Shown: piece after piece, positions 3,826-57,630 of the stretch | How positions within the stretch are numbered: the first letter of the stretch is position 1 | Layout: the number at the start of each line of letters is the position of its first letter | Source: an uncultured delta proteobacterium | GTDB taxonomy: Bacteria; Desulfobacterota; Syntrophorhabdia; Syntrophorhabdales; WCHB1-27 | DNA: 64,000 nt | Assembly: GCA_963750015.1 (NCBI GenBank) | Contig: CAVVPU010000053.1 | Location: forward strand, 3,104 to 67,103 | Reading direction: 5' to 3' | Program-made: the position numbers and the translations under genes | The notes under the pieces: generated by a model | What the model was told of the DNA's origin: nothing | What the model saw: only the letters and a program-made list of their open reading frames with translations | Database searches by the model: none

Positions 3826-3947
3826 GAGGTGTGGCCGGTGACACGGGTCGCCGTATCTTTAAAAGCCCGCGGCTCCGGCCCTCATAGGATGCACATACCA
3901 GCACCAATTGAAGGACCGCCGCAGGCGCGCAGTGCCCCTTCCCGAGA
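3826..3947 (-). repeat. Family-B structured repeat, short variant (copy B1, reverse orientation)
   Basis: Reverse complement aligns with the 5' and 3' parts of the long B copies (..TTCAATTGGTGCTGGTATGTGCATCCTATGAGGGCCGGAGCCGCGGGCTTTTAAAGATACGGCGACCCGTGTCACCGGCCACACCTCG). It lacks the ~150-nt internal stem-loop. Confidence 0.8.
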
Positions 3948-3970
3948 GGGTGGGGTGAGGGGGGCGGTTG

Positions 3971-4268
3971 ATAACAGAGGCGGCCCGAAGAGGCCGCCCA
4001 AACCATTCCCTCCCTTCCCCTCCCTTTTTTCAGCGCACAGGCATTTGACCCCCTTGGCAATCCCATAAGCGTATGGCACCCCTTCCTCTCGCACATATTG
4101 CGCAGCGACCGTTAACCAGCGTTAGCGGAGCTTGAGCGGTCCCGAAGGGATGATGTGTCATGCTCGAACTGCTTTTAGCTCGGACGCCACCGTGCACATC
4201 AAGCTCAAGCGGAGCTTACGATGGTCGGGAGCGGAGCCTTTGTGCGAGAGGAAGGGGTGCCATACGCG
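3971..4268 (+). repeat. Family-A structured repeat, copy A1 (forward)
   Basis: GC hairpin GGCGGCCCGAAGAGGCCGCC (3979-3998), polypyrimidine tract, CAGCGCACAGGCATT, then a perfect 27-bp stem: 4068-4094 GCGTATGGCACCCCTTCCTCTCGCACA pairs with 4241-4267 TGTGCGAGAGGAAGGGGTGCCATACGC. Three further copies are in the window. Confidence 0.85.
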
Positions 4269-4297
4269 TCGATTCCCCATACCACCCCCATTCAAAC

Positions 4298-4412
4298 GCC
4301 TTTGCTTTGCTTTGCCTTTGCCTTTGCTTTGCCTTTGCCTTTGCTTTGCCTTTGCCTTTGCTTTGCCTTTGCCTTTGCTTTGCCTTTGCTTTGCCTTTGC
4401 CTGTGCCCTGCC
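4298..4412 (+). repeat. tandem repeat, 17-nt unit GCCTTTGCCTTTGCTTT, about 6-7 units
   Basis: Direct reading of 4298-4412. Shorter or degenerate versions follow or precede every A and most B copies. Confidence 0.9.
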
Positions 4413-4497
4413 CTTTTCTTTCCCCTTTCATTTCTCCCCTTGCCGCATTATATAGTGAACGGGAAGAATGTCCCTTTTGGGGCGGCAGGAGGCCGGA

Positions 4498-5631
4498 ATG
4501 TTCGGACGACCGATAAAACTTTTCAAGCTTTTCGGTTTCACCGTGCGCGCCGATGCGAGTTGGCTCGTCATCGCATTCCTGATCGTCTGGACCCTCGCCG
4601 CCGGGCTCTTTCCCTCCTACTACAAAGGCCTGCCCAAGGCCACCTACTGGTGGATGGGGGTCGGCGGGGCGCTCGGACTATTCGGCTCAGTCGTCTTCCA
4701 CGAATTCTGGCACTCCTATGTAGCCCGGCGCCACGGCCTTCCTATCAGCGGCATCACCCTCTTCATCTTCGGGGGTGTCTCGGAGATGACCGAAGAGCCG
4801 TCGAGCCCTGGGGTGGAGTTCTTCATGGCCCTGGCAGGCCCCGTTTCAAGCTTCGTCCTGGCAGGTATCTTCTACCTGGCCGCCCTCGGAATGCGGGCGA
4901 CCACTCCTCTTCCGCTCCACGCGGTCATCGGCTATCTTGCTCACATCAATGTACTGCTTGGCTTCTTCAACCTTCTGCCCGCCTTCCCCCTTGATGGCGG
5001 CCGCGTGCTCAGGTCCATCTTGTGGCACTGGAAGGAAAATCTGCGGTGGGCAACGAAGGTCGCTTCCCGGATAGGTGCAGCCTTCGGCGGCGCCATGATA
5101 CTTCTCGGCATAGTCACCTTCGTCACCGGCAACCTGGTCGGCGGCATCTGGTGGTTCCTCATAGGCATGTTCCTGAGAAACGCTTCCATGATGTCCTATC
5201 GCCAGATCCTGATCCGCAGAGCCCTCGAAGGAGAGCACGTCGGCCGTTTTATGAAGGCCGATCTCGTGACCGTCGCGCCTTCCCTTACCCTCTCGAAACT
5301 CATGGATAACTACATTTACAAATACCCTTACAAGATGTTCCCCGTGGTGGACAAAGGGAATCTCGCCGGGGTGGTCACCATTAATCAACTCAAGGAAGTC
5401 CCCAGGGAAGAATGGAATACGCGCACAGTGAAAGATATCGCCGAGACGTGCACTGAAGGCAACACTATCGACCCGGATGCGGATGCGACCAAGGCCTTGG
5501 AGAAGATGAGCAGGACGGGGACCGGCCGCCTCATGGTCGTGGACCACGGCAGGCTGGTCGGCATCCTTGTCCTGCGCGACCTCCTGCGATTCTTGTCGAA
5601 TAAGCTCGATTTCGAAGCCGCTGAGGTATAA
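4498..5631 (+). CDS. M50 site-2-protease family metalloprotease with C-terminal CBS pair
   Basis: HEFWHSYVARRHG (HExxH), a multi-TM N-terminal half, and two CBS-like repeats at the C-terminus. Start moved to ATG 4498, with AGGAGG 5 nt upstream. Confidence 0.85.
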   Translation: MFGRPIKLFKLFGFTVRADASWLVIAFLIVWTLAAGLFPSYYKGLPKATYWWMGVGGALGLFGSVVFHEFWHSYVARRHGLPISGITLFIFGGVSEMTEEPSSPGVEFFMALAGPVSSFVLAGIFYLAALGMRATTPLPLHAVIGYLAHINVLLGFFNLLPAFPLDGGRVLRSILWHWKENLRWATKVASRIGAAFGGAMILLGIVTFVTGNLVGGIWWFLIGMFLRNASMMSYRQILIRRALEGEHVGRFMKADLVTVAPSLTLSKLMDNYIYKYPYKMFPVVDKGNLAGVVTINQLKEVPREEWNTRTVKDIAETCTEGNTIDPDADATKALEKMSRTGTGRLMVVDHGRLVGILVLRDLLRFLSNKLDFEAAEV

Positions 5632-8951: not shown

Positions 8952-8965
8952 TGAGAGGAACAGAG

Positions 8966-9030
8966 CACAGGCAAGGCACAAGCAAAGGCAAGGCAAAGGC
9001 ACAAGCAAAGGCAAAGGCATTAGGAAGGGG
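8966..9030 (-). repeat. tandem GCAAAGG-type repeat (reverse complement of the 17-nt unit), about 4 degenerate units
   Basis: CACAGGCAAGGCACAAGCAAAGGCAAGGCAAAGGCACAAGCAAAGGCAAAGGCA, directly flanking A2. Confidence 0.8.
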
Positions 9031-9049
9031 AAAGTCATGCCCGTGGGAC

Positions 9050-9340
9050 GCGTATGGCACCCATTCCTCTCGCACAAAGGCTCCGCTCCCGACCATCGTA
9101 AGGCTCCGGTTCGCTTGATGTGCGCGGTGGCGCACGAGCAAAGAAGTCCGAGCACGCACATCATCCCTTCGGGACCGCTCTCCTTAAGCCAACGGTGGTT
9201 AACGGTCGCTCCGCAATATGTGCGGGAGGAACGGGTGCCATACGCTTATGGGATTACCAGGGAGGAATGCCTGTGCGCTGGAGGGGAAGAAAGGAAGGGA
9301 GGGGGTGTCAGGGCGGCCTCTTCGGGCCGCCGGACTTATC
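9050..9340 (-). repeat. Family-A structured repeat, copy A2 (reverse)
   Basis: Reverse complement aligns along its full length with A1. The stem arms at 9050-9076 and 9223-9249 pair at 25/27 positions. The terminal hairpin GGCGGCCTCTTCGGGCCGCC is at 9312-9331. Confidence 0.85.
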
Positions 9341-9394: not shown

Positions 9395-9520
9395 CGGACG
9401 AGGGACGAGAAAAGACATCCCGAAACTCGAATCGCGAATCGCGAAAGTTAACGACAAAAGAGCGACCGACCCCCTCACCCTACCCTCTCCCCTCACCGAG
9501 GGCGAGGGAAAAAAGAGCAT
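9395..9520 (+). repeat. S module: repeat found upstream of two B copies
   Basis: ..GAAACTCGAATCGCGAATCGCGAAAGTTAAC..AAAAGAGCGACCGACCCCCTCACCCTACCCTCTCCCCTCA..GGCGAGGG recurs at 54700-54835. Confidence 0.75.
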
Positions 9521-9529
9521 GTTGCCCTT

Positions 9530-9777
9530 GGCGGCCTCAAGGGACGCCGCCCTTATTCAATTGGTGTTGGTGTGTACATCCTATGAGGGCCGGAGCCGCG
9601 GACCAAAGGATACGGCGACCCGTGTCATCGGGCGGTCGCATGAAGGGGATGCGTCATAGGTGGATGAGATTTGAGCCTTATCGGCCGCAGGCGTACTTTC
9701 GTACGCCGGAGGGCATACGGCGAAAAGATCGCCGCATAGGGCGTATTCCCTTCATGCGACCGGCCACACCTCGTGCC
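9530..9777 (+). repeat. Family-B structured repeat, long variant (copy B2, forward)
   Basis: Has the 5' hairpin GGCGGCC..GCCGCC, then CTTATTCAATTGGTG..CCTATGAGGGCCGGAGCCGCGG. A long stem pairs GGCGGTCGCATGAAGGGGATGCG with CGTATTCCCTTCATGCGACCGGCC. An inner hairpin GGCGTAC-TTTC-GTACGCC is present. Confidence 0.85.
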
Positions 9778-10042
9778 TTCATATGCCCTTGCCTCTGTAT
9801 TTTGCCTCTCGCCCCTTTGTCCCTTCGCCCATAGAGCCCCTTCGCCTCGTCCTGGACGAATTATAACGGGTTGATACCCGAGCTATATATGCACCCGAGC
9901 AGGATCAGCCCCGCATTGACGGCCTTTGTTCTTGCATTGTGCCCTGTTATCGTGTTAATCCCTATTATCGAGATATCGGTATTCCAAGCACCCAAGCCCG
10001 ATCGCCGATCCTCTTCACTTTTCCTCATACTCGGGAGGCTTT

Positions 10043-11281: not shown

Positions 11282-11354
11282 CCCTCCGTCACATCGGGTT
11301 TGCTCTTGAAGTCCGGTCGGTTTCTTGTTGATAGGTAAGAGGGAGGGAAAAATG

Positions 11355-11428
<74 letters not shown>

Positions 11429-15087: not shown

Positions 15088-15206
15088 AATTTCACCTCGT
15101 CCCAAAAGTATACACCATTCCGAAAAACAGGCGTAGTTTCTTGGGATGTTGCTTCCAACGTTTCTCGGCTGATTTGATGTCCCTTACCTTTTTTCCCTTT
15201 GCCTTT

Positions 15207-15276
15207 GGCGGCCTCAAAGGGACGCCGCTCTTATTCAATTGTTGCTGGTGTGTGTATCCTATGAAGGCCGGAGCCG
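15207..15276 (+). repeat. Family-B repeat, 5' fragment (copy B3)
   Basis: GGCGGCCTCAAAGGGACGCCGCTCTTATTCAATTGTTGCTGGTGTGTGTATCCTATGAAGGCCGGAGCCGG, then it diverges into another hairpin-rich sequence. Confidence 0.75.
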
Positions 15277-31950: not shown

Positions 31951-32220
31951 TGCCTCGTACCTATTCCTGCCTTAAGCTTTCCGACAACGGGACACCGACC
32001 GCTTCCAGTGCTCTTCCGCGCACACACCCCATGATGGCAGGGCATTGGAAGAGTGATGACAAGCGCACCCGGGAATAGCCCGATGCCCTGTCGATCCGGA
32101 AATCGTTAGTGTCCTTAAGTTTATCCATTGTGAGTTGACCAGGTTGAGGATAAACATCGTAGTTCCGGGAAGTTATAATAACACAGAAAGGCGGGGACGT
32201 ACAATGGGGGGTGGGAGCAG

Positions 32221-32258
32221 GGCACAGGCAAAGGCAAGGCGCGGCAAGGGCAAGGCAT
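32221..32258 (-). repeat. degenerate GCAAGG-type tandem repeat flanking A3
   Basis: GGCACAGGCAAAGGCAAGGCGCGGCAAGGGCAAGGCA. Confidence 0.6.
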
Positions 32259-32281
32259 CTAAGGACCATTGCCCGTTGAGC

Positions 32282-32575
32282 GCGTATGGCACCCGATCCT
32301 CTCGCACATCAGGCTCCGCTCCCGACCACCGTAAGCTCCACTTGAGCTTGATGTGCATGGTGGCGTCCGAGCTAAAAGCAGTTCGAGCATGACACATCAT
32401 CCTTCGGACCGCTCAAGCTCCGCTAACGCTGGTTAACGGTCGCTTAAGCAATATGTGCGAGAGGATCGGGTGCCATACGCTTATGGGACTGCCAGGGGGA
32501 AAATGCCTGTGCGCTGAAAAGAAGAAAGGGAATGGAGGGAATGTAACGGGCGGCCCGTAAGGCCGCCGGGCGATG
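32282..32575 (-). repeat. Family-A structured repeat, copy A3 (reverse)
   Basis: The arms GCGTATGGCACCCGATCCTCTCGCACA (32282-32308) and TGTGCGAGAGGATCGGGTGCCATACGC (32454-32480) pair at 27/27, with two compensated substitutions relative to A1. The terminal hairpin GGCGGCCCGTAAGGCCGCC is at 32549-32567. Confidence 0.85.
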
Positions 32576-33033
32576 GGCCACGGCATATCCACCCGGCCAC
32601 TACAGTGGTGTCTAGTTCAGGTTCAGGAAAATCCAGGCCCTTGGGGTGTAATCTTCAAGGTCTGACCGACGAAAATGTTGGGGGCCCCTTCCTGCAGTGG
32701 TTATGTTCCACTATTCGCTTGCAAGCATCGATTGCAGGTGGTAATCAGTGGTTATTGAACGGCCATTTATGGCGACAAGAAGAGACGGTGATGCAGTCTT
32801 CATCATACAAAAAGCTACAATAGATTGGAGCGGCCATACAAGTTGTTGTGTATACTCAATTATTTGTGCATAAAGGAAAGATGATGCGAGAATCGGCTTA
32901 CATCCACGGAACCCACCCCGAAGAGATACCCGTGAAAGCCTCCTCTTTCCGTGCTTATACTATATACGAACATGCGAACGTAACCCACCATCTGCCCACC
33001 TGCCTGCGCGGCACCTTCTACTCATGACCTCTC

Positions 33034-33530
33034 GTGGGGGGGAGAATGGATAGCAAGGATAGTATAGAGTTCCTGAATGGATCGCAGAGCCCGGGATATT
33101 CCTCTTTCCGGTGCGGACGCCTTACTATCCTGTACGGAATATTCATTCTGCTCGGGTCATGCCTGATCTGTCCTCACAGTCACCTCCTTTTCCATAACAT
33201 TTTAGAAATGTTCAGCTTTTTGATAGCGTTTTGCATATTTGTGATCGCCTGGAACTCAAGACGGTTTCTCGATAGCATCTTGTCCCCTTTTCATCGGCAT
33301 TGCTTTTCTGTGTGCGGGATTCATTGATATAGTTCGCACACCTGCTTACAGAGGAATGGGCGTGCTCCGTGGATATGACCCTAATTTACCTACCTAGCGC
33401 CAATGAGTCTGAAGGGACCGGCATGGGGCTGGCCAATGTCCGCCGGATCATCAGCCGACTCGGCGGCAGAACCCGGGCGGAGGGCGAAGTCAATCAGGGC
33501 GCGACGTCTTACTTTTCACTGCCTCAAACG
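33034..33530 (+). pseudogene. MASE3-type sensor histidine kinase remnant (internal deletion)
   Basis: A MASE3-like TM region (HLLFHNILEMFSFLIAFCIFVIAWNSRRFLD) runs after frame breaks straight into a HATPase_c tail ([38 protein letters not shown]). The HisKA domain and most of the catalytic domain are missing. Confidence 0.6.
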
Positions 33531-33736
33531 AGGCCAGGGACTCGAACACGGGGACTCTATTGGGTCAGGGGGTTTGAAGGCTTTGGATGTCTTTTGCGAT
33601 GGGGACTAGTTCGGAAAGAAAAGAGTTGGCGAATACCATTGAAATCCAGAAATCCGACACAGAACGGGGACGGGGACCGGCTTCCTGCACGCCTAAACGA
33701 GAAAAGAATCGAGACTCATTTCAAGGGAGGTTTGTC

Positions 33737-34252
33737 ATGAATGAATCGAGTAAAGAAATCGAAATGGGATTCACGAAAGGCTTTTTTCCTGAACACGGCG
33801 ACATCTGTCTGATCTATGAGAATGATGAGCAGCGCCGAAGGATCGTTTCAGAATACATGGCAGCCGGCATTAGACAGGGAGAACTGGTTCGGTATTTCGC
33901 GGACTCGACAACACCCGAAAAGATTCGTTCGTGGCTCCTGGAAATAGGGGTGGCGCTCCCGGAAGCCGAGCAAAATGGCGCTTTCACCATATCGAGAGCT
34001 GAAAGCGTCTACTGCCGAAGGAGAGTTCGAACTCAGGTAATGATAGACGGGACGGAACACCGATACGGCCAGGCCAAGGAGGCCGGTTATAGCGGCGTTC
34101 GCAGTTGTGGTGAGATGACCTGGGTGTTCAGAGGTATTCCCGGTTCCGACCGCTGGCTGGAGTATGAAGCTTTGCTTAACACCGTCACCGCCAAACTTTC
34201 CCCATACGGGGATGTGCCAATACGACGCCCGCTGACAGAGACACGCTGTTGA
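33737..34252 (+). CDS. MEDS-domain protein, possibly degraded
   Basis: ATG follows [54 protein letters not shown] resembles MEDS sensory domains. The C-terminal ~20 codons read better in another frame ([12 protein letters not shown]..). Confidence 0.5.
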
Positions 34253-34397
34253 ATGTGTCAGGTGATCTTATATAGCAAGGGCAGGTTGTAGGAATCCTTA
34301 CTACACAAGGCCGGAGGAGTATCTGGCAAGCTAAGATAAAAGGAACGGGAGAAGAATATAGGACCTCCATGGGGAGCGACACGAGTGAGAGAGGCGG

Positions 34398-36625
34398 TTG
34401 GAAGAAATCGATGCCCGGTCCTGGTCAGATTATAGCGGCGCGGATCTCTGTTCGTGCTGCCGACCAGAAAGAATATCACCGAGTTTATGCGAAATCGTTG
34501 TCATGTATACAGGTGTACACTCCTGCCGCGTTTGCCTAGGACATTCCTCTTCACAGGAGGGGGCATTTGACGAAAAGCCATGCAGCGAGTGCGAAAACGC
34601 TCTGCAAAAGGAAGGAGAAACCGCTACTATCTCCAAGGATTTCGCATGCAAGTTGCAGGAATTACCACATTTTTGCGTTATTGCATTAGAAACGATTGAC
34701 CGTCGCTTCGGTTTCTTGATCTTCCGCGTTGATCAAGCCGGATTGTTTGAACTATACAAACCTTTTGTTATTAACCTTGGAAATCTCGTCGCCCTTTCTC
34801 TGGAAAACCGTCTGCAAAAAAACGATCTGCAGCAGGCGCGAGACGTACTTGAACGAAGGGTAGCAGAGCGTACGGAACAGTTGGGAAGTGCCAACAGGCG
34901 CCTGAAAGAGGACATCACCGAACGTGAACGGGCCGAGGAGGCCCTCCGCCGCCTCAACCGCGAACTGCGAGCCATCAGCAACTGTAACCAGGTCTTGATG
35001 CGGGCAGAGAACGAGCAGACCTTGCTCAACGACATCTGCCGTATCGTTCACGACGAGGCCGGCTACCGCATGGCCTGGGTGGGGTATGCCGACAACGATG
35101 AGGCAAAGACCATACGCCCTGTCGCCTGGGCCGGGGTCGAGGATGGGTATCTCGCAACGGCCAATATCACCTGGGCCGACGCGGAACGGGGGCGCGGCCC
35201 TGGCGGCACAGCCATCCGGAGCGGCGAAACAGTCTATGTTCAGGATTTCACCACCGACCCGCGAATGGCCCCGTGGCGCGAGGATGCCTTGCAGCGCGGC
35301 TATCGCTCCACTATCGCCCTACCCCTTAAAGACGAGAGCGCGAAGGCATTCGGCGTTCTCCTCATTTATTCCATGGAGATCAGCGCATTTACCCCTGACG
35401 AACTCCGGCTTCTTGAGGAGCTTGCAGGCGATCTGGCATTCGGCATCAACGTGCTGCGAACCCGCAGCAAGCGTAAGGCGGCCGAAGAGACAGTCGGACG
35501 GTTGAACGCCGACCTCTCCGCAACCCTTCAGGCGATCCCCGACCTGCTGTTCGAACTGGATCAGACGGCACATATGTCAACATATGGGCGCGGAATCCGA
35601 CCTCCTTGCACGGGAAAAAGAAGTCCTGCTTGGCCATACCGTCTCCGGTATGCTCGCGCCGGATGCCGCGCAAATCGTCATGGAGTCGATTCACGAGGCT
35701 GACGAAAAGGGCTCTTCCTACGGGAACACAATCTCCATCGAGCTTCCCGACGGCGCACGATGGATAGAGACTATCCAGATCCAAGAAGACCGGTGCCGAT
35801 GCCCTTCCGGCCGCTTCATGAGTTGTCCCGTGATATCACCGGGCGTAAGAGGGCTTGTCGAGGAAGAGATCCGTAAACTTAACTAGGAACTGGAACAACG
35901 TGTCGGGGACCGTTCCATATAACGCCAGGCCGGCGAACAAGGTAGCTGGAGGCGTTGTGCGTACTCGGTGTCCCACGACCTGCGCGCGCCCTTGCGCCAC
36001 ATTGACGGCTTTCTGGAACTGCTCCGACAGCGGCTGCCCAAGACCCTCGATGAACAAAGTGAACACCACATGAATGCTATCGCCACTTCTGCAAAAGACA
36101 TGGGAATACTGATTGATGATCTCCTCTCCTTCTCACGCATGGGGCGGTACTGAAATGTCCAAAGAGGCAAGTGGACCTTGCAAGCTCTGGTGCAGGAGGT
36201 AATCAGAGACTTTGAACCGGAGACCGCGGACAGATCCGTCCGCTGGCAGATCGCTGACCTTCCCGTGGTCAGAGGAGATCAGGCCATGCTGCGGGTAGTG
36301 CTGGTCAACTTGATCTCGAACAGCTTGAAATTCACCCGGCTTGTACGCCGGCAGAAATAGAAATAGCCGGGAGTCCGGCCAGGAAGGTGAAACCATCCTC
36401 TTCGTGCGCGACAATGGGGCGGGCTTTGACATGCAGTATGCCGACCGGCTCTTCGGCGTCTTTCGGCGCCTGCATCGGGCGGACGAATTTGAAGGCATCG
36501 GGATCGGCCTCGCCAACGTCCGCCGGATAATCACCAGACACGGCGGCAGGACCTGGGCGGAAGGGGAGGTCGACCACGGTGCGACGTTCTGCTTCTCTCT
36601 GCCTTCGAAAACGGAGGGACAATGA
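34398..36625 (+). pseudogene. multi-domain GAF/PAS sensor histidine kinase broken into at least 5 ORFs
   Basis: The domains run in consecutive frames. Coiled coil plus GAF lies in 34398..35702, PAS in 35584..35886, and HisKA ([18 protein letters not shown]) in 35968..36153. HATPase_c is split over 36178..36360 and 36341..36625 ([26 protein letters not shown]). Confidence 0.7.
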
Positions 36626-37083
36626 ATACGGATTCGCCGCTCAAACGGATGCTTCTGGTGGAAGACGATCCGAAGGACGTCGAGCTTACGCTCACCGCAC
36701 TCGCAGATTACCACCTCGCCAACGAGATTGCGGTTGCCTGCGACGGGGTTGAAGCGCTTGATTATCTCTATCAACGGGGGTCCTTCTCCACCCGCCCCGA
36801 GGGGAACCCTGTCGTGATCCTGCTCGATATCAAGCTGCCCAAGCTGGATGGCATCCAAGTCTTGAGGCACCTCAAATCGGACGAGCGTATGCGTTCCATT
36901 CCCATCGTCATACTGACATCCTCCTGTGAAGATCGCGATCTGGACGAGTGCTACAAGCTTGGTGTGAACGCCTACGTCGTGAAGCCCGTTCGATTCACGG
37001 AGTTTGTTGACACCGTCAAGACAATCGGTGTGTTTTGGGCTCTCATCAATGAACCGCCTCCCGGCAGCGTAAGGAAGGGATGA
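36622..37083 (+). CDS. stand-alone response regulator receiver protein
   Basis: Has [24 protein letters not shown] and VVKP. Its start overlaps the kinase stop (ATGA). Confidence 0.85.
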
Positions 37084-37577
37084 CCGGGGGCGCTCGTGTC
37101 CGCGCGTGCGCGCCTGACATGGCGCTGTGGGCTTCACTGCGTCATCTTTTTGTCGATGGGTCCTCTCTATTTCTGGTGCATTTTTGTGCGCAACAGGCCG
37201 GGGAAAGCCGTTTTTGAACCGACGGGAGCAAGAATACATCCTTCAGTCGAGCCCGAAGGAACACTCTCAGGCAGACAGGCGGAATAGATGGGCCGGATCG
37301 ATGCCCTGATCCTGGTCAGACGGGGCATGTTGGCCCTGGACACCAACACCCGGGTCTAAGACCCGGCCGGTGTCGGAACATCCTTCCCTAGTCCCCCGCT
37401 TGCAATCCTTGCGCTGGATGGACGTGTGCTCCACGGAAAGTGACCGAAATCACGTCCGGGCCTCATTGGTTCTATTGCAGCACTATACCGGCATTCCTCA
37501 AGAATTCTTGAACGTCGAGGGGCATCATTTGTAGGTGAATGTACTACGTGTAGGCAGTGGAAATCTTGTTCTGCCTT

Positions 37578-37840
37578 TGGCGGCCTTCAGGGACGCCGCT
37601 CTTATTCAATTGGTGCTGGTGTGCGCATCCTATGAAGGCCGGAGCCGCGCTCTCTTTGATGATACGGCGACCCGTGCCACCGGCCGGTCGGATGGGAGGG
37701 ATCGTGAGCTGTGGATGGGCTGTCGTGCCTCATAGACCGCAGGCGTACTTAACGTACGCCGGGGCGTCATGAGGTGCGGCAGAGCGCCGCAGATCGCGAT
37801 CTCTCCCAGCCGACCGGCCACACCTCGTGCCCTCACTCGT
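37578..37840 (+). repeat. Family-B structured repeat, long variant (copy B6, forward)
   Basis: The stem pairs GGCCGGTCGGATGGGAGGGATCG with CGATCTCTCCCAGCCGACCGGCC. Inner hairpin is GGCGTAC-TTAAC-GTACGCC. Confidence 0.85.
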
Positions 37841-37980
37841 CCCCTTGCCCCTTTGACTCCCTGGACTCTTTCCGAGAAGCGCATCGACAAACAAATCCGC
37901 TGTGTGCCCCGGGCCGGCGCGGCCGCTTACATTGCGGCCATTCGCCGATTATAATAGTATTGGTAAAGAACAGGGGTGCC

Positions 37981-42738: not shown

Positions 42739-43070
42739 GGTGTAGCCTCCCTTCTTGTTTGAATTATAGCGGGTCTTCTTTGACTCTAAGGAGTCCTGTA
42801 GGTCTTATCGAACTTATCGGACCCGTTGAGAGCATGATCGGCAAAGACATCAGCCCGACGTTTTCCGCCCATTCATATTCCCCATCCTATATTGAGCTTC
42901 CCTTTGGTGTCAAGGCCTAACGCATATCCGGCTCCTGTCTTGGCTGCCGCCGCGGGGCCTGCTCCTCGAAAACCTGCTCTCCAAAAGGAACAAAAAGGCC
43001 TTGACAAACAATATGTCATCTGGAATAGTGGTCACCATGCACCCGACGGGGTTGCATACCAGAACGGTTG

Positions 43071-43382
43071 ATAATAGCGGCGGCCTGAAGGCCGCCCATT
43101 ACATCCCCTCCTTTCCCTTTTCCCCCCCAGTGCACAGGCATTTGCCCTTGGCAAGTCCATAAGCGTATGGCACCCCTTCCTCTCGCACATATTGCGGAGC
43201 GACCGTTAACCACCGTTGGCTTAAGGAGAGCGGTCCGTGAGGATGATGTGCGTGCTCGAACTCGGGGCACCCAGCCCTAAGGCTGGGTCGGACTTGGACG
43301 CCACCGCGCACATCAAGCGAACTGGAGCCTTACGGGGGTCGGGAGCGGAGCCTCATGTGCGAGAGGAAGGGGTGCCATACGC
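43071..43382 (+). repeat. Family-A structured repeat, copy A4 (forward)
   Basis: Same 27-bp stem arms as A1, at 43163-43189 and 43356-43382. It carries an extra internal hairpin CCCAGCC-CTAA-GGCTGGG. Confidence 0.85.
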
Positions 43383-43407
43383 TTCCCGCAAGCAGTGGTC
43401 CTTAGAT

Positions 43408-43456
43408 GCCTTTGCTTTGCCTTTGCTTTGCCTTTGCCTTTGCCCTCGCCTGTGCG
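43408..43456 (+). repeat. tandem GCCTTTG-type repeat, about 3 units
   Basis: GCCTTTGCTTTGCCTTTGCTTTGCCTTTGCCTTTGCCCTCGCC. It ends 36 nt before the tatD start. Confidence 0.8.
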
Positions 43457-43491
43457 TTGATTCTGCCTCCTCCTCTGTGCTATAAATTGCC

Positions 43492-54835: not shown

Positions 54836-54848
54836 GAATGTTTCTTTT

Positions 54849-55116
54849 GGCGGCCTCTATGGGCCGCCGCCCTTATTCAATTGGTGCTGGTGTGTGCATC
54901 CTATGAAGGCCGGAGCCGCGGGCTTTTGGAGATACGGCGACCCGTGTCACCGGCCGGTCGGCTGGGAGGGATCGTGAGGTGTGGATGCAATTTGAGCCTT
55001 GCTGCCCGGATGGCGTACTAAATGTACGTCGGAGGGCGCATGGCGAAAAGTGCGCCGCCGGGTGCCCGCTTGCGGGCGGCACGATTCCTCCCAGCCGACC
55101 GGCCACACCCCGTGCC
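54849..55116 (+). repeat. Family-B structured repeat, long variant (copy B7, forward)
   Basis: A 25-bp stem pairs GGCCGGTCGGCTGGGAGGGATCGTG with CACGATTCCTCCCAGCCGACCGGCC, including one G-U. It is followed by GCCTTTGCCTTTGCCCTTGCC at 55120-55150. Confidence 0.85.
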
Positions 55117-55202
55117 CTCTCTTGCCTTTGCCTTTGCCCTTGCCTCTTTTGCTTCTGCGCCTCCCGCCTCTTTGCCTCCCGCATTGACTTCCGGGAGACG
55201 AT

Positions 55203-57294: not shown

Positions 57295-57535
57295 TCTCTC
57301 TTTCCGAGAAGCGGTTGTCGCGGGGCCATCGCCCCGTCCTAATAATGATCGCCCATTAGCCTAAAGACTTAACCGTATCGCCCTTCGTCACGTCCATACA
57401 TTCCCGAACTTCCGCCAGTGCCTTTGTCCGGCTCTTACTACATTTATGAGTCGTCCGGAAATACAGGCTAGGTGTTTTGCTAGGTGCAATTCGTCATATT
57501 TTGTGCTACTTTGTTATCGGCGTCTGATAAAGCCA

Positions 57536-57630
57536 AACCATCCGCGAGGATGGGACGGAAAGCCAACGGGTCTCAAGATCGCGCAAGCGGTCTCCTCCCT
57601 TGGAGATGGCCGGGCCGCCAGTAGAAACGT
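57536..57630 (+). promoter_or_regulatory. second candidate c-di-GMP-I-like aptamer (5' half convincing, 3' half atypical)
   Basis: AAAGCCAAACCAUCC-GCGA-GGAUGGGACGGAAAGCC is nearly identical to the 25570 element and parallels GEMM-I. The downstream part differs and contains AUCGC-GCAA-GCGGU. Confidence 0.4.

Follow-up and report, generated by a model that had tools for sequence, protein, structure and literature searches.

The Correia elements of Neisseria are short intergenic repeats present in many copies, 100-155 bp long, which carry inverted repeats of about 26 bp and form a long hairpin when transcribed. The 26-bp repeats are terminal and a TA is duplicated at the target; the elements are found near promoters and mark rearrangements. 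The BOX elements of Streptococcus pneumoniae are intergenic repeats of modular build that contain short internal units in varying number. Insertion sequences of the ISAs1 family end in inverted repeats of 14-22 bp that start with CAGGG and are accompanied by a 10-bp direct repeat (PMC11946415). One member, ISArsp11, has the left inverted repeat CAGGGCTGATGCAAAGTCG and a direct repeat of 10 bp (PMC6305408). REPINs are intergenic, hairpin-forming mobile DNA of about 70-120 bp, with arms made of REP sequences, a poorly conserved spacer and a RAYT gene, and compensatory changes are common in their hairpins (PMC3116915).

Here we analysed a repeat, termed family A, in a DNA stretch of 64,000 nt (the window). 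Family A is short (about 270-380 bp), non-coding and multicopy, with four copies in the 64 kb and more in related contigs. We give a probability of roughly 0.6 to the reading that it is a lineage-restricted MITE of an uncultured Syntrophorhabdales-like bacterium, with ends of the ISAs1 type and a palindromic interior in which the pairing is conserved. Like MITEs derived from ISAs1, it is small, non-coding and multicopy, it has CAGGG ends (both ends in the diverged copy L108, the right end in the window copies) and L108 is flanked by a 10-bp direct repeat (PMC11946415, PMC6305408). It differs from them in the left end of the window copies, which starts with CAGCG or CAGTG, in the unclean duplications of these copies and in that no partner transposase was found. 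A covarying rod of about 215 nt with a 27-bp stem is not described for the ISAs1 family.

With the Correia elements, family A has in common the intergenic position, the multiple copies, repeats of similar length, the long hairpin and the location near promoters and at rearrangement points. However, its 27-bp repeats lie inside another pair of repeats, the outer ones, and its duplication is 10 bp long. Like REPINs, it is intergenic hairpin-forming DNA with compensatory changes and a long persistence in one lineage, whereas REPINs lack terminal repeats with a 10-bp duplication (PMC3116915). The arm of family A is not self-complementary as a REP arm would be, and the interior is well conserved within subtypes. 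The modular build, the variable short units and the sharing of intergenic regions by several families recall the BOX elements and the 'multicopy nucleotide sequences' of Geobacter (PMC2700814, PMC2996986). The Geobacter sequences have no sequence similarity to family A, whose organism is Syntrophorhabdales-like, and a search of their supplements for family A motifs gave no match (PMC2700814, PMC2996986). A Geobacter origin, at first suggested by the c-di-GMP riboswitches of the window, was rejected, since named homologs of TatD and of a phosphatase place the organism near Syntrophorhabdales.

Table 1. Features of the family A copies in the window and of the neighbouring tatD promoter
Feature	Position	Strand	Remarks
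Copy c1 (alpha)	4031..4410	+	outer repeats 4031-4043 and 4398-4410; blast and alignment against the other copies
Copy c2 (beta)	8961..9280	-	GC hairpin 9312-9331
Copy c3 (alpha)	32218..32516	-	GC hairpin 32549-32567
Copy c4 (beta)	43128..43459	+	GC hairpin 43079-43096
c1 GC hairpin, GGCGGCC-loop-GGCCGCC, 5' of the copy	3979..3998	+	after GTTGATAAC (3967-3975), before the pyrimidine tract (about 4006-4030)
c1 left terminal inverted repeat, CAGCGCACAGGCA	4031..4043	+	homologous to the L108 left end CAGGGCAAGCGCA
c1 inner arms	4069-4095 / 4241-4267	+	27 nt, 100% complementary (inverted-repeat finder)
c1 rod interior	4096..4240	+	side hairpin GGTCCCGAAGGGAT at 4138-4151; predicted folds and pair counts
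c1 microsatellite, GCCTTTGCCTTTGCTTT	4298..4397	+	6.5 copies, within the right end; TRF
c1 right terminal inverted repeat, TGCCTGTGCCCTG	4398..4410	+	reverse complement CAGGGCACAGGCA
c2 arms	9050-9076 / 9219-9245	-	27 nt, 93% complementary, two mismatches (G.U and C.A; inverted-repeat finder)
c3 arms	32282-32309 / 32453-32480	-	28 nt, 100% complementary (inverted-repeat finder); 27-nt limits 32454-32480 and 32282-32308
c4 arms	43161-43190 / 43355-43384	+	30 nt, 100% complementary (inverted-repeat finder); 27-nt limits 43163-43189 and 43356-43382
tatD promoter and start codon	43460..43494	+	TTGATT, 18 nt, TATAAA preceded by TG, TTGCC, ATG; outside the element, whose position it fixes

The four copies that an earlier note had placed in the window were all recovered with their coordinates and strands (Table 1 gives the limits of the units as set by the outer repeats). 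Alignment of the copies confirmed the order of parts proposed there: GC hairpin, polypyrimidine tract, CAGCGCACAGGCATT, arm, interior and second arm. The arms are perfectly complementary in c1, c3 and c4. The two changes that the note had seen in c2 are indeed uncompensated, one leaving a G.U and the other a C.A. In c3, the arms read CCCGATCC / GGATCGGG where the other copies have CCCCTTCC / GGAAGGGG, and since both arms are altered (GA/TC), this double change counts as compensated, as the note had held. The extra hairpin that it had seen at the apex of c4 lies at 43270-43287. The arms are 142-164 nt apart in the four copies (inverted-repeat finder), and 9 matches of the 13-nt arm end were found in the window, with 1.3 expected by chance. 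The interior occurs in two subtypes, alpha in c1 and c3 and beta in c2 and c4, and is 91-97% identical within each. That the conservation is non-coding was also borne out, as 1- and 2-nt indels between the copies break every reading frame. One frame starting with ATGATG seemed conserved in c1, c2 and c4 and was rejected as coding; it is shifted in the copies L101 and L096 of a related strain, and again by the 3' arm. Two further candidates were discarded. An invertible promoter switch with 27-bp repeats does not fit the orientation of the interior, which is identical in all 15 copies aligned, and beta does not represent an inverted alpha. A sigma-54 promoter at the TGGCAC in the arm has the wrong spacing to its GC element.

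The second arm had been taken as the end of the unit, which was not confirmed. It is followed by a variable linker, then by a (CTTTGCC)n microsatellite and finally by the conserved motif TGCCTGTGCnCTG. The sequence CAGCGCACAGGCA, located 5' of the first arm, is the inverted repeat of this motif and matches it at 12/13 positions in the window copies. Together the two enclose the rod and the microsatellite. The window units are about 300-380 bp long because their true limits are the outer repeats, and in the predicted folds these repeats pair around the rod. In the window copies the right end starts with CAGGGCA. The length of the microsatellite differs in each copy and also between strains in the alignments, and L108 is devoid of it; it has grown from a TTTGCC at the inner side of the right end.

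The clearest ends were observed in L108 (6666-6934), a copy at another locus that is 67-74% identical to the others over the rod. Its ends are CAGGGCAAGCGCATTTGGGAA and, reverse-complemented, CAGGGCAAACCCATTTGGAAA; they are 21 nt long, match at 18/21 positions and both start with CAGGGCA. On both sides the copy is flanked by GCCCGGCCGC, a direct repeat matching at 10/10 positions. Terminal inverted repeats together with a direct repeat are the signature of a cut-and-paste transposon, here of the ISAs1 type. The earlier note had leaned towards a structured RNA and had named a MITE match with target-site duplications as the finding that would speak against it; L108 has exactly this, with its CAGGG ends of 21 nt and its 10-bp repeat. 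The objection it had raised to a MITE, that the conservation extends beyond the 27-bp arm, falls, as the true ends are formed by the outer CAGCGCACAGGCA / TGCCTGTGCnCTG pair and the GC hairpin and the tract are separate from the unit. The decisive clue, terminal repeats with a target duplication, thus lay beyond the hairpin and was visible only in a diverged copy.

Several observations count against the MITE reading. A clean target duplication was found in a single copy, L108. Of the window copies, c1 has a flanking repeat of 8/9 and c2 of 7/8, whereas c3 and c4 have none; the flanks are rich in pyrimidines, where partial matches arise easily. The imperfect duplications of c1 and c2 fit old insertions and prove nothing. 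No transposase with matching ends was present among the scanned genes of the window or among the genes tabulated for the related loci. In addition, the copies share a conserved GC hairpin and pyrimidine tract upstream, even though both lie outside the terminal repeats. Without family A, this GC-hairpin module occurs beside another repeat, family B (15207-15226 and 54849-54868). The GC hairpin and the pyrimidine tract are therefore a separate repeat module that accompanies family A. As a terminator of the opposite strand, the GC hairpin was rejected; its tail is weak, and missing in c3 and L101. The opposite strand of the pyrimidine tract (4006-4030, 43104-43127) has runs of G, for example GGGAGGGGAAGGGAGGG in c1, a motif of the G-quadruplex type.

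The range of family A was narrow. A metagenome scan with the arm pattern returned seven contigs, all from one sample, and their source is a close relative, with tatD differing at 8.6% of the four-fold sites. Contigs of two near-identical strains (L103, L104 and L105; flanks 96-99% identical) contain the orthologs of all four window copies. Copies at additional loci were found in a related strain (L096 and L098-L102), the one in L098 being truncated at the apex. Since the close strains carry the element at each of the four loci, no insertion polymorphism was seen within the species cluster, which again counts against a MITE. In none of five more distant relatives (L106-L110), with a TatD 72-79% identical, is the element present upstream of tatD. 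Filled and empty sites thus occur among related genomes, as is typical of MITEs. Family A is therefore known from one metagenome and close strains, plus one copy in a genome with a TatD 79% identical. It was not found in plasmids, phages and viral contigs, in 94 unrelated genome stretches or in about 75 kb from other relatives. When the 17-mer GGTCGGGAGCGGAGCCT was compared with genome contigs, the matches listed were only chance ones in GC-rich genomes. For the L108 insertion, no orthologous empty site was found, the locus being rearranged there.

If family A is a MITE, the ancestral unit would have been about 270 bp long, with terminal inverted repeats beginning with CAGGG and a near-palindromic interior that folds into a rod of about 215 nt closed by the 27-bp stem. 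It would have spread in trans, by an ISAs1-type DDE transposase that duplicates 8-10 bp of the target. In the window species, the copies are old and have become fixed at their sites, which are rich in pyrimidines and lie directly 5' of promoters. Present change comes mainly from ectopic gene conversion and recombination between the copies, by which their edges become hot spots for differences in gene content between strains. The pairing of the rod may be kept by selection on a hairpin of single-stranded DNA or RNA, or by arm-to-arm conversion within the palindrome. A plain DDE mechanism leaves the conserved pairing unexplained, as a classical DDE transposon needs no internal hairpin, and this counts against the MITE.

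The pairing bears most directly on another explanation, namely that family A is a structured-RNA family. Here the reported strand would be transcribed, giving a rod with its 27-bp stem enclosed by the paired outer repeats; its function would be that of a small RNA or of a cis element, for example an RNase III site. We regard this as unlikely. The rod itself is its best argument. The pairing suggested by the earlier note persisted when 11 copies from close strains and the diverged L108 were added. In a covariance-model alignment of 15 copies, which was fitted to the structure, 98.1% of the cells were paired and 12 pairs were changed on both sides, compared to 4.4 in shuffles (0/500 reached 12) and 0-2 with slid partners. 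The two central pairs of the 27-bp stem occur as C-G and G-C and as U-A, A-U and C-G, respectively; the ortholog of c3 in L103 has GC/GC, i.e. C-G where c3 has A-U. L108 alone is predicted to fold into the same rod architecture. It has the compensatory helix ACAGAGC/GCUCUGU in place of GCUUGAGC/GCUCAAGC in alpha, G-C to A-U changes in two helices (pairs 42/214 and 48/209), a change of CACAU/AUGUG to CACGU/ACGUG and further double changes in the closing stem. The z-scores of the fold energy ranged from -8.3 to -10.4. Both strands fold well. On the reported strand, G.U is frequent at three positions whereas A.C cells are singletons only, so that this strand may be the one that matters; this is a modest hint at selection on one strand.

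However, few independent events underlie the covariation: the split between alpha and beta, the changes at the two central pairs of the stem and those in a single diverged copy. Moreover, the alignment had been fitted to the model. In REPINs, that is, in mobile hairpin DNA, compensatory changes are common too (PMC3116915), and the covariation alone is thus no proof of an RNA. Beyond the hairpin, nothing supported the lean of the earlier note towards a new structured RNA. Simple consensus scans of all four loci, a weak negative, revealed no promoter or terminator common to the copies. Orthologous copies are only 82-96% identical and are swapped or mosaic between near-identical strains, a copy at another locus is truncated, and the family is confined to one lineage. 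The note had recognised no Rfam family, and the family A regions of the window have indeed no match at the gathering score. With c1, only chance matches of the microRNA type appeared at E up to 10. The pyrimidine tract of c1 can pair with a purine-rich stretch around the GC hairpin (3939-3962), which gives rise to such spurious matches. A retron, 6S RNA, Y RNA or omega-RNA was dismissed, as neither an RT nor a TnpB gene is adjacent and Rfam gave no match.

The position of the copies relative to genes was informative for the RNA reading in both directions. At 7/9 loci a co-directional gene follows immediately downstream, as expected for a cis element; the exceptions are c2 and L101. C2 faces the 3' end of the convergent lepB gene and has no gene downstream. 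The right end of c4 directly abuts the -35 box of tatD. In the relatives L106-L110, the tatD promoter and start are almost unchanged (TTGATT, 17-18 nt, TGCTATAAAT, TGCC, ATG). Since these relatives keep the promoter without having the element, c4 was inserted upstream of a working promoter and lies outside the tatD leader, which argues against an RNA acting from that leader. The tatD promoter ends only 5 nt before the ATG and is nearly identical in relatives with a TatD 72-79% identical, suggesting a leaderless or nearly leaderless mRNA. In L108, a second copy of this promoter module, including the start codon, follows the family A copy and precedes a truncated CBS-gene fragment (L108 6950-7125). 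About 40 nt 5' of the c4 unit, at 43001-43029 (+), there is a good match to a promoter of the sigma-70 type (TTGACA, 17 nt, AATAGT, with a TG). It could drive read-through transcription of c4; in L103 it is split from the element by a 2.1-kb insertion.

The same positions could also point to a DNA module kept by the host upstream of promoters, either domesticated or never mobile, which might be a protein-binding site, a cruciform insulator or a site for the exchange of promoters or gene cassettes. In c1, c3, c4 and L108 the right end is 0-20 bp from the predicted -35 box, family B with the same layout is aimed at the other gene of divergent pairs, and at 3/4 loci the gene content peculiar to a strain starts at an element edge or close to it. 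Yet all promoter positions except that of tatD are only guesses from the consensus. No gene lies downstream of c2 and L101, the relatives use the same tatD promoter in the absence of the element, and no binding protein or motif is known. We therefore hold such a host module to be decidedly improbable. That family A is a single-stranded-DNA mobile element of the REPIN/RAYT or IS200/IS605 type, for which a tyrosine HUH transposase recognises a hairpin on one strand only, is the most improbable reading of all, since the hairpin kept by compensatory changes as in REPINs, the hint of a strand-specific G.U tolerance and the TTGAT just 5' of the GC hairpin in most copies are set against arms unlike the small palindromes of REPs, an interior as conserved as the arms, the lack of TTGAT in c3, L101 and L103_c3o, no Y1 transposase seen, and the terminal inverted repeats and 10-bp direct repeat of L108, neither of which, to our knowledge, is made by this class. 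A role of TTGAT as a target or duplication of the IS200/IS605 type was also rejected, because several copies and most right ends lack it.

The comparison of near-identical strains showed the copies to be more diverged than their surroundings. While the flanks are 96-99% identical, orthologous copies reach only 82-96%. The copy at tatD is beta in the window and alpha in L103, within DNA that is otherwise 97-99% identical. In L104, c2 is a mosaic with an alpha 5' half and a 3' half identical to the beta copy of the window, and c1-like sequence has taken the place of its upstream flank. Gene content differed as well. After c1 (4468-5631), the window has an M50/CBS peptidase gene and L104 a nitroreductase gene. 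In L103, 2.1 kb with fragments of a solute-binding-protein gene and a family B copy are inserted just before c4 (43047/43066). A block of about 5 kb near c3 (32694-37907) with MEDS- and GAF-domain genes is absent from L103. From the swapped and mosaic copies and the breaks of gene content at the edges, we conclude that the copies exchange sequence by recombination and mark rearrangement points. The element edges are thus hot spots of gene-content difference between strains that are 96-99% identical.

A transcribed 27-bp stem, if reached by read-through, would be double-stranded RNA of the kind that RNase III cuts. We consider it conceivable, although rather unlikely, that the rod is a selected single-stranded structure, either RNA or one-strand DNA, which is carried by the MITE or was domesticated from it. 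At promoters, it would then act on the neighbouring gene, for example by RNase III cleavage of read-through transcripts, and it would also serve the strains as a point of cassette exchange. On the favoured reading, family A is an undescribed MITE family of an uncultured Syntrophorhabdales-like lineage, and its ends appear to be of the ISAs1 type. For RNA discovery it is a caution, as even a long hairpin whose compensatory changes are real and which matches nothing in Rfam can be mobile DNA.

In the whole window, the Rfam matches were one tRNA and two c-di-GMP riboswitches, and nothing else. The sole tRNA is a tRNA-Arg (CCG) at 11354-11428 (-). The class I c-di-GMP aptamers are located at 25568-25667 (+) and 57523-57623 (+); of the two, the GGC variant scored 62.3 bits (gathering score 59) and the standard one 51.6 bits.

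Family B was observed at 54847-55117 (+) and also at 9472-9798, 37577-37832, 21304-21522 and 15104-15276, with a partial copy at 3833-3912. It is laid out like family A: a GC hairpin is followed after about 85 nt by a long hairpin, and then come CTTGCC repeats and a gene. Family B is often placed back to back with family A, aimed at the other gene of a divergent pair. Its 25-bp stem (54952-54976 / 55080-55104) is 96% complementary, and a weaker one is present at 9630-9765. In the family B copy beside c1 the long hairpin is missing, and the flanks meet at a single CCGGCC, which is duplicated at the filled site. This suggests that the hairpin of family B is an insertion as well.
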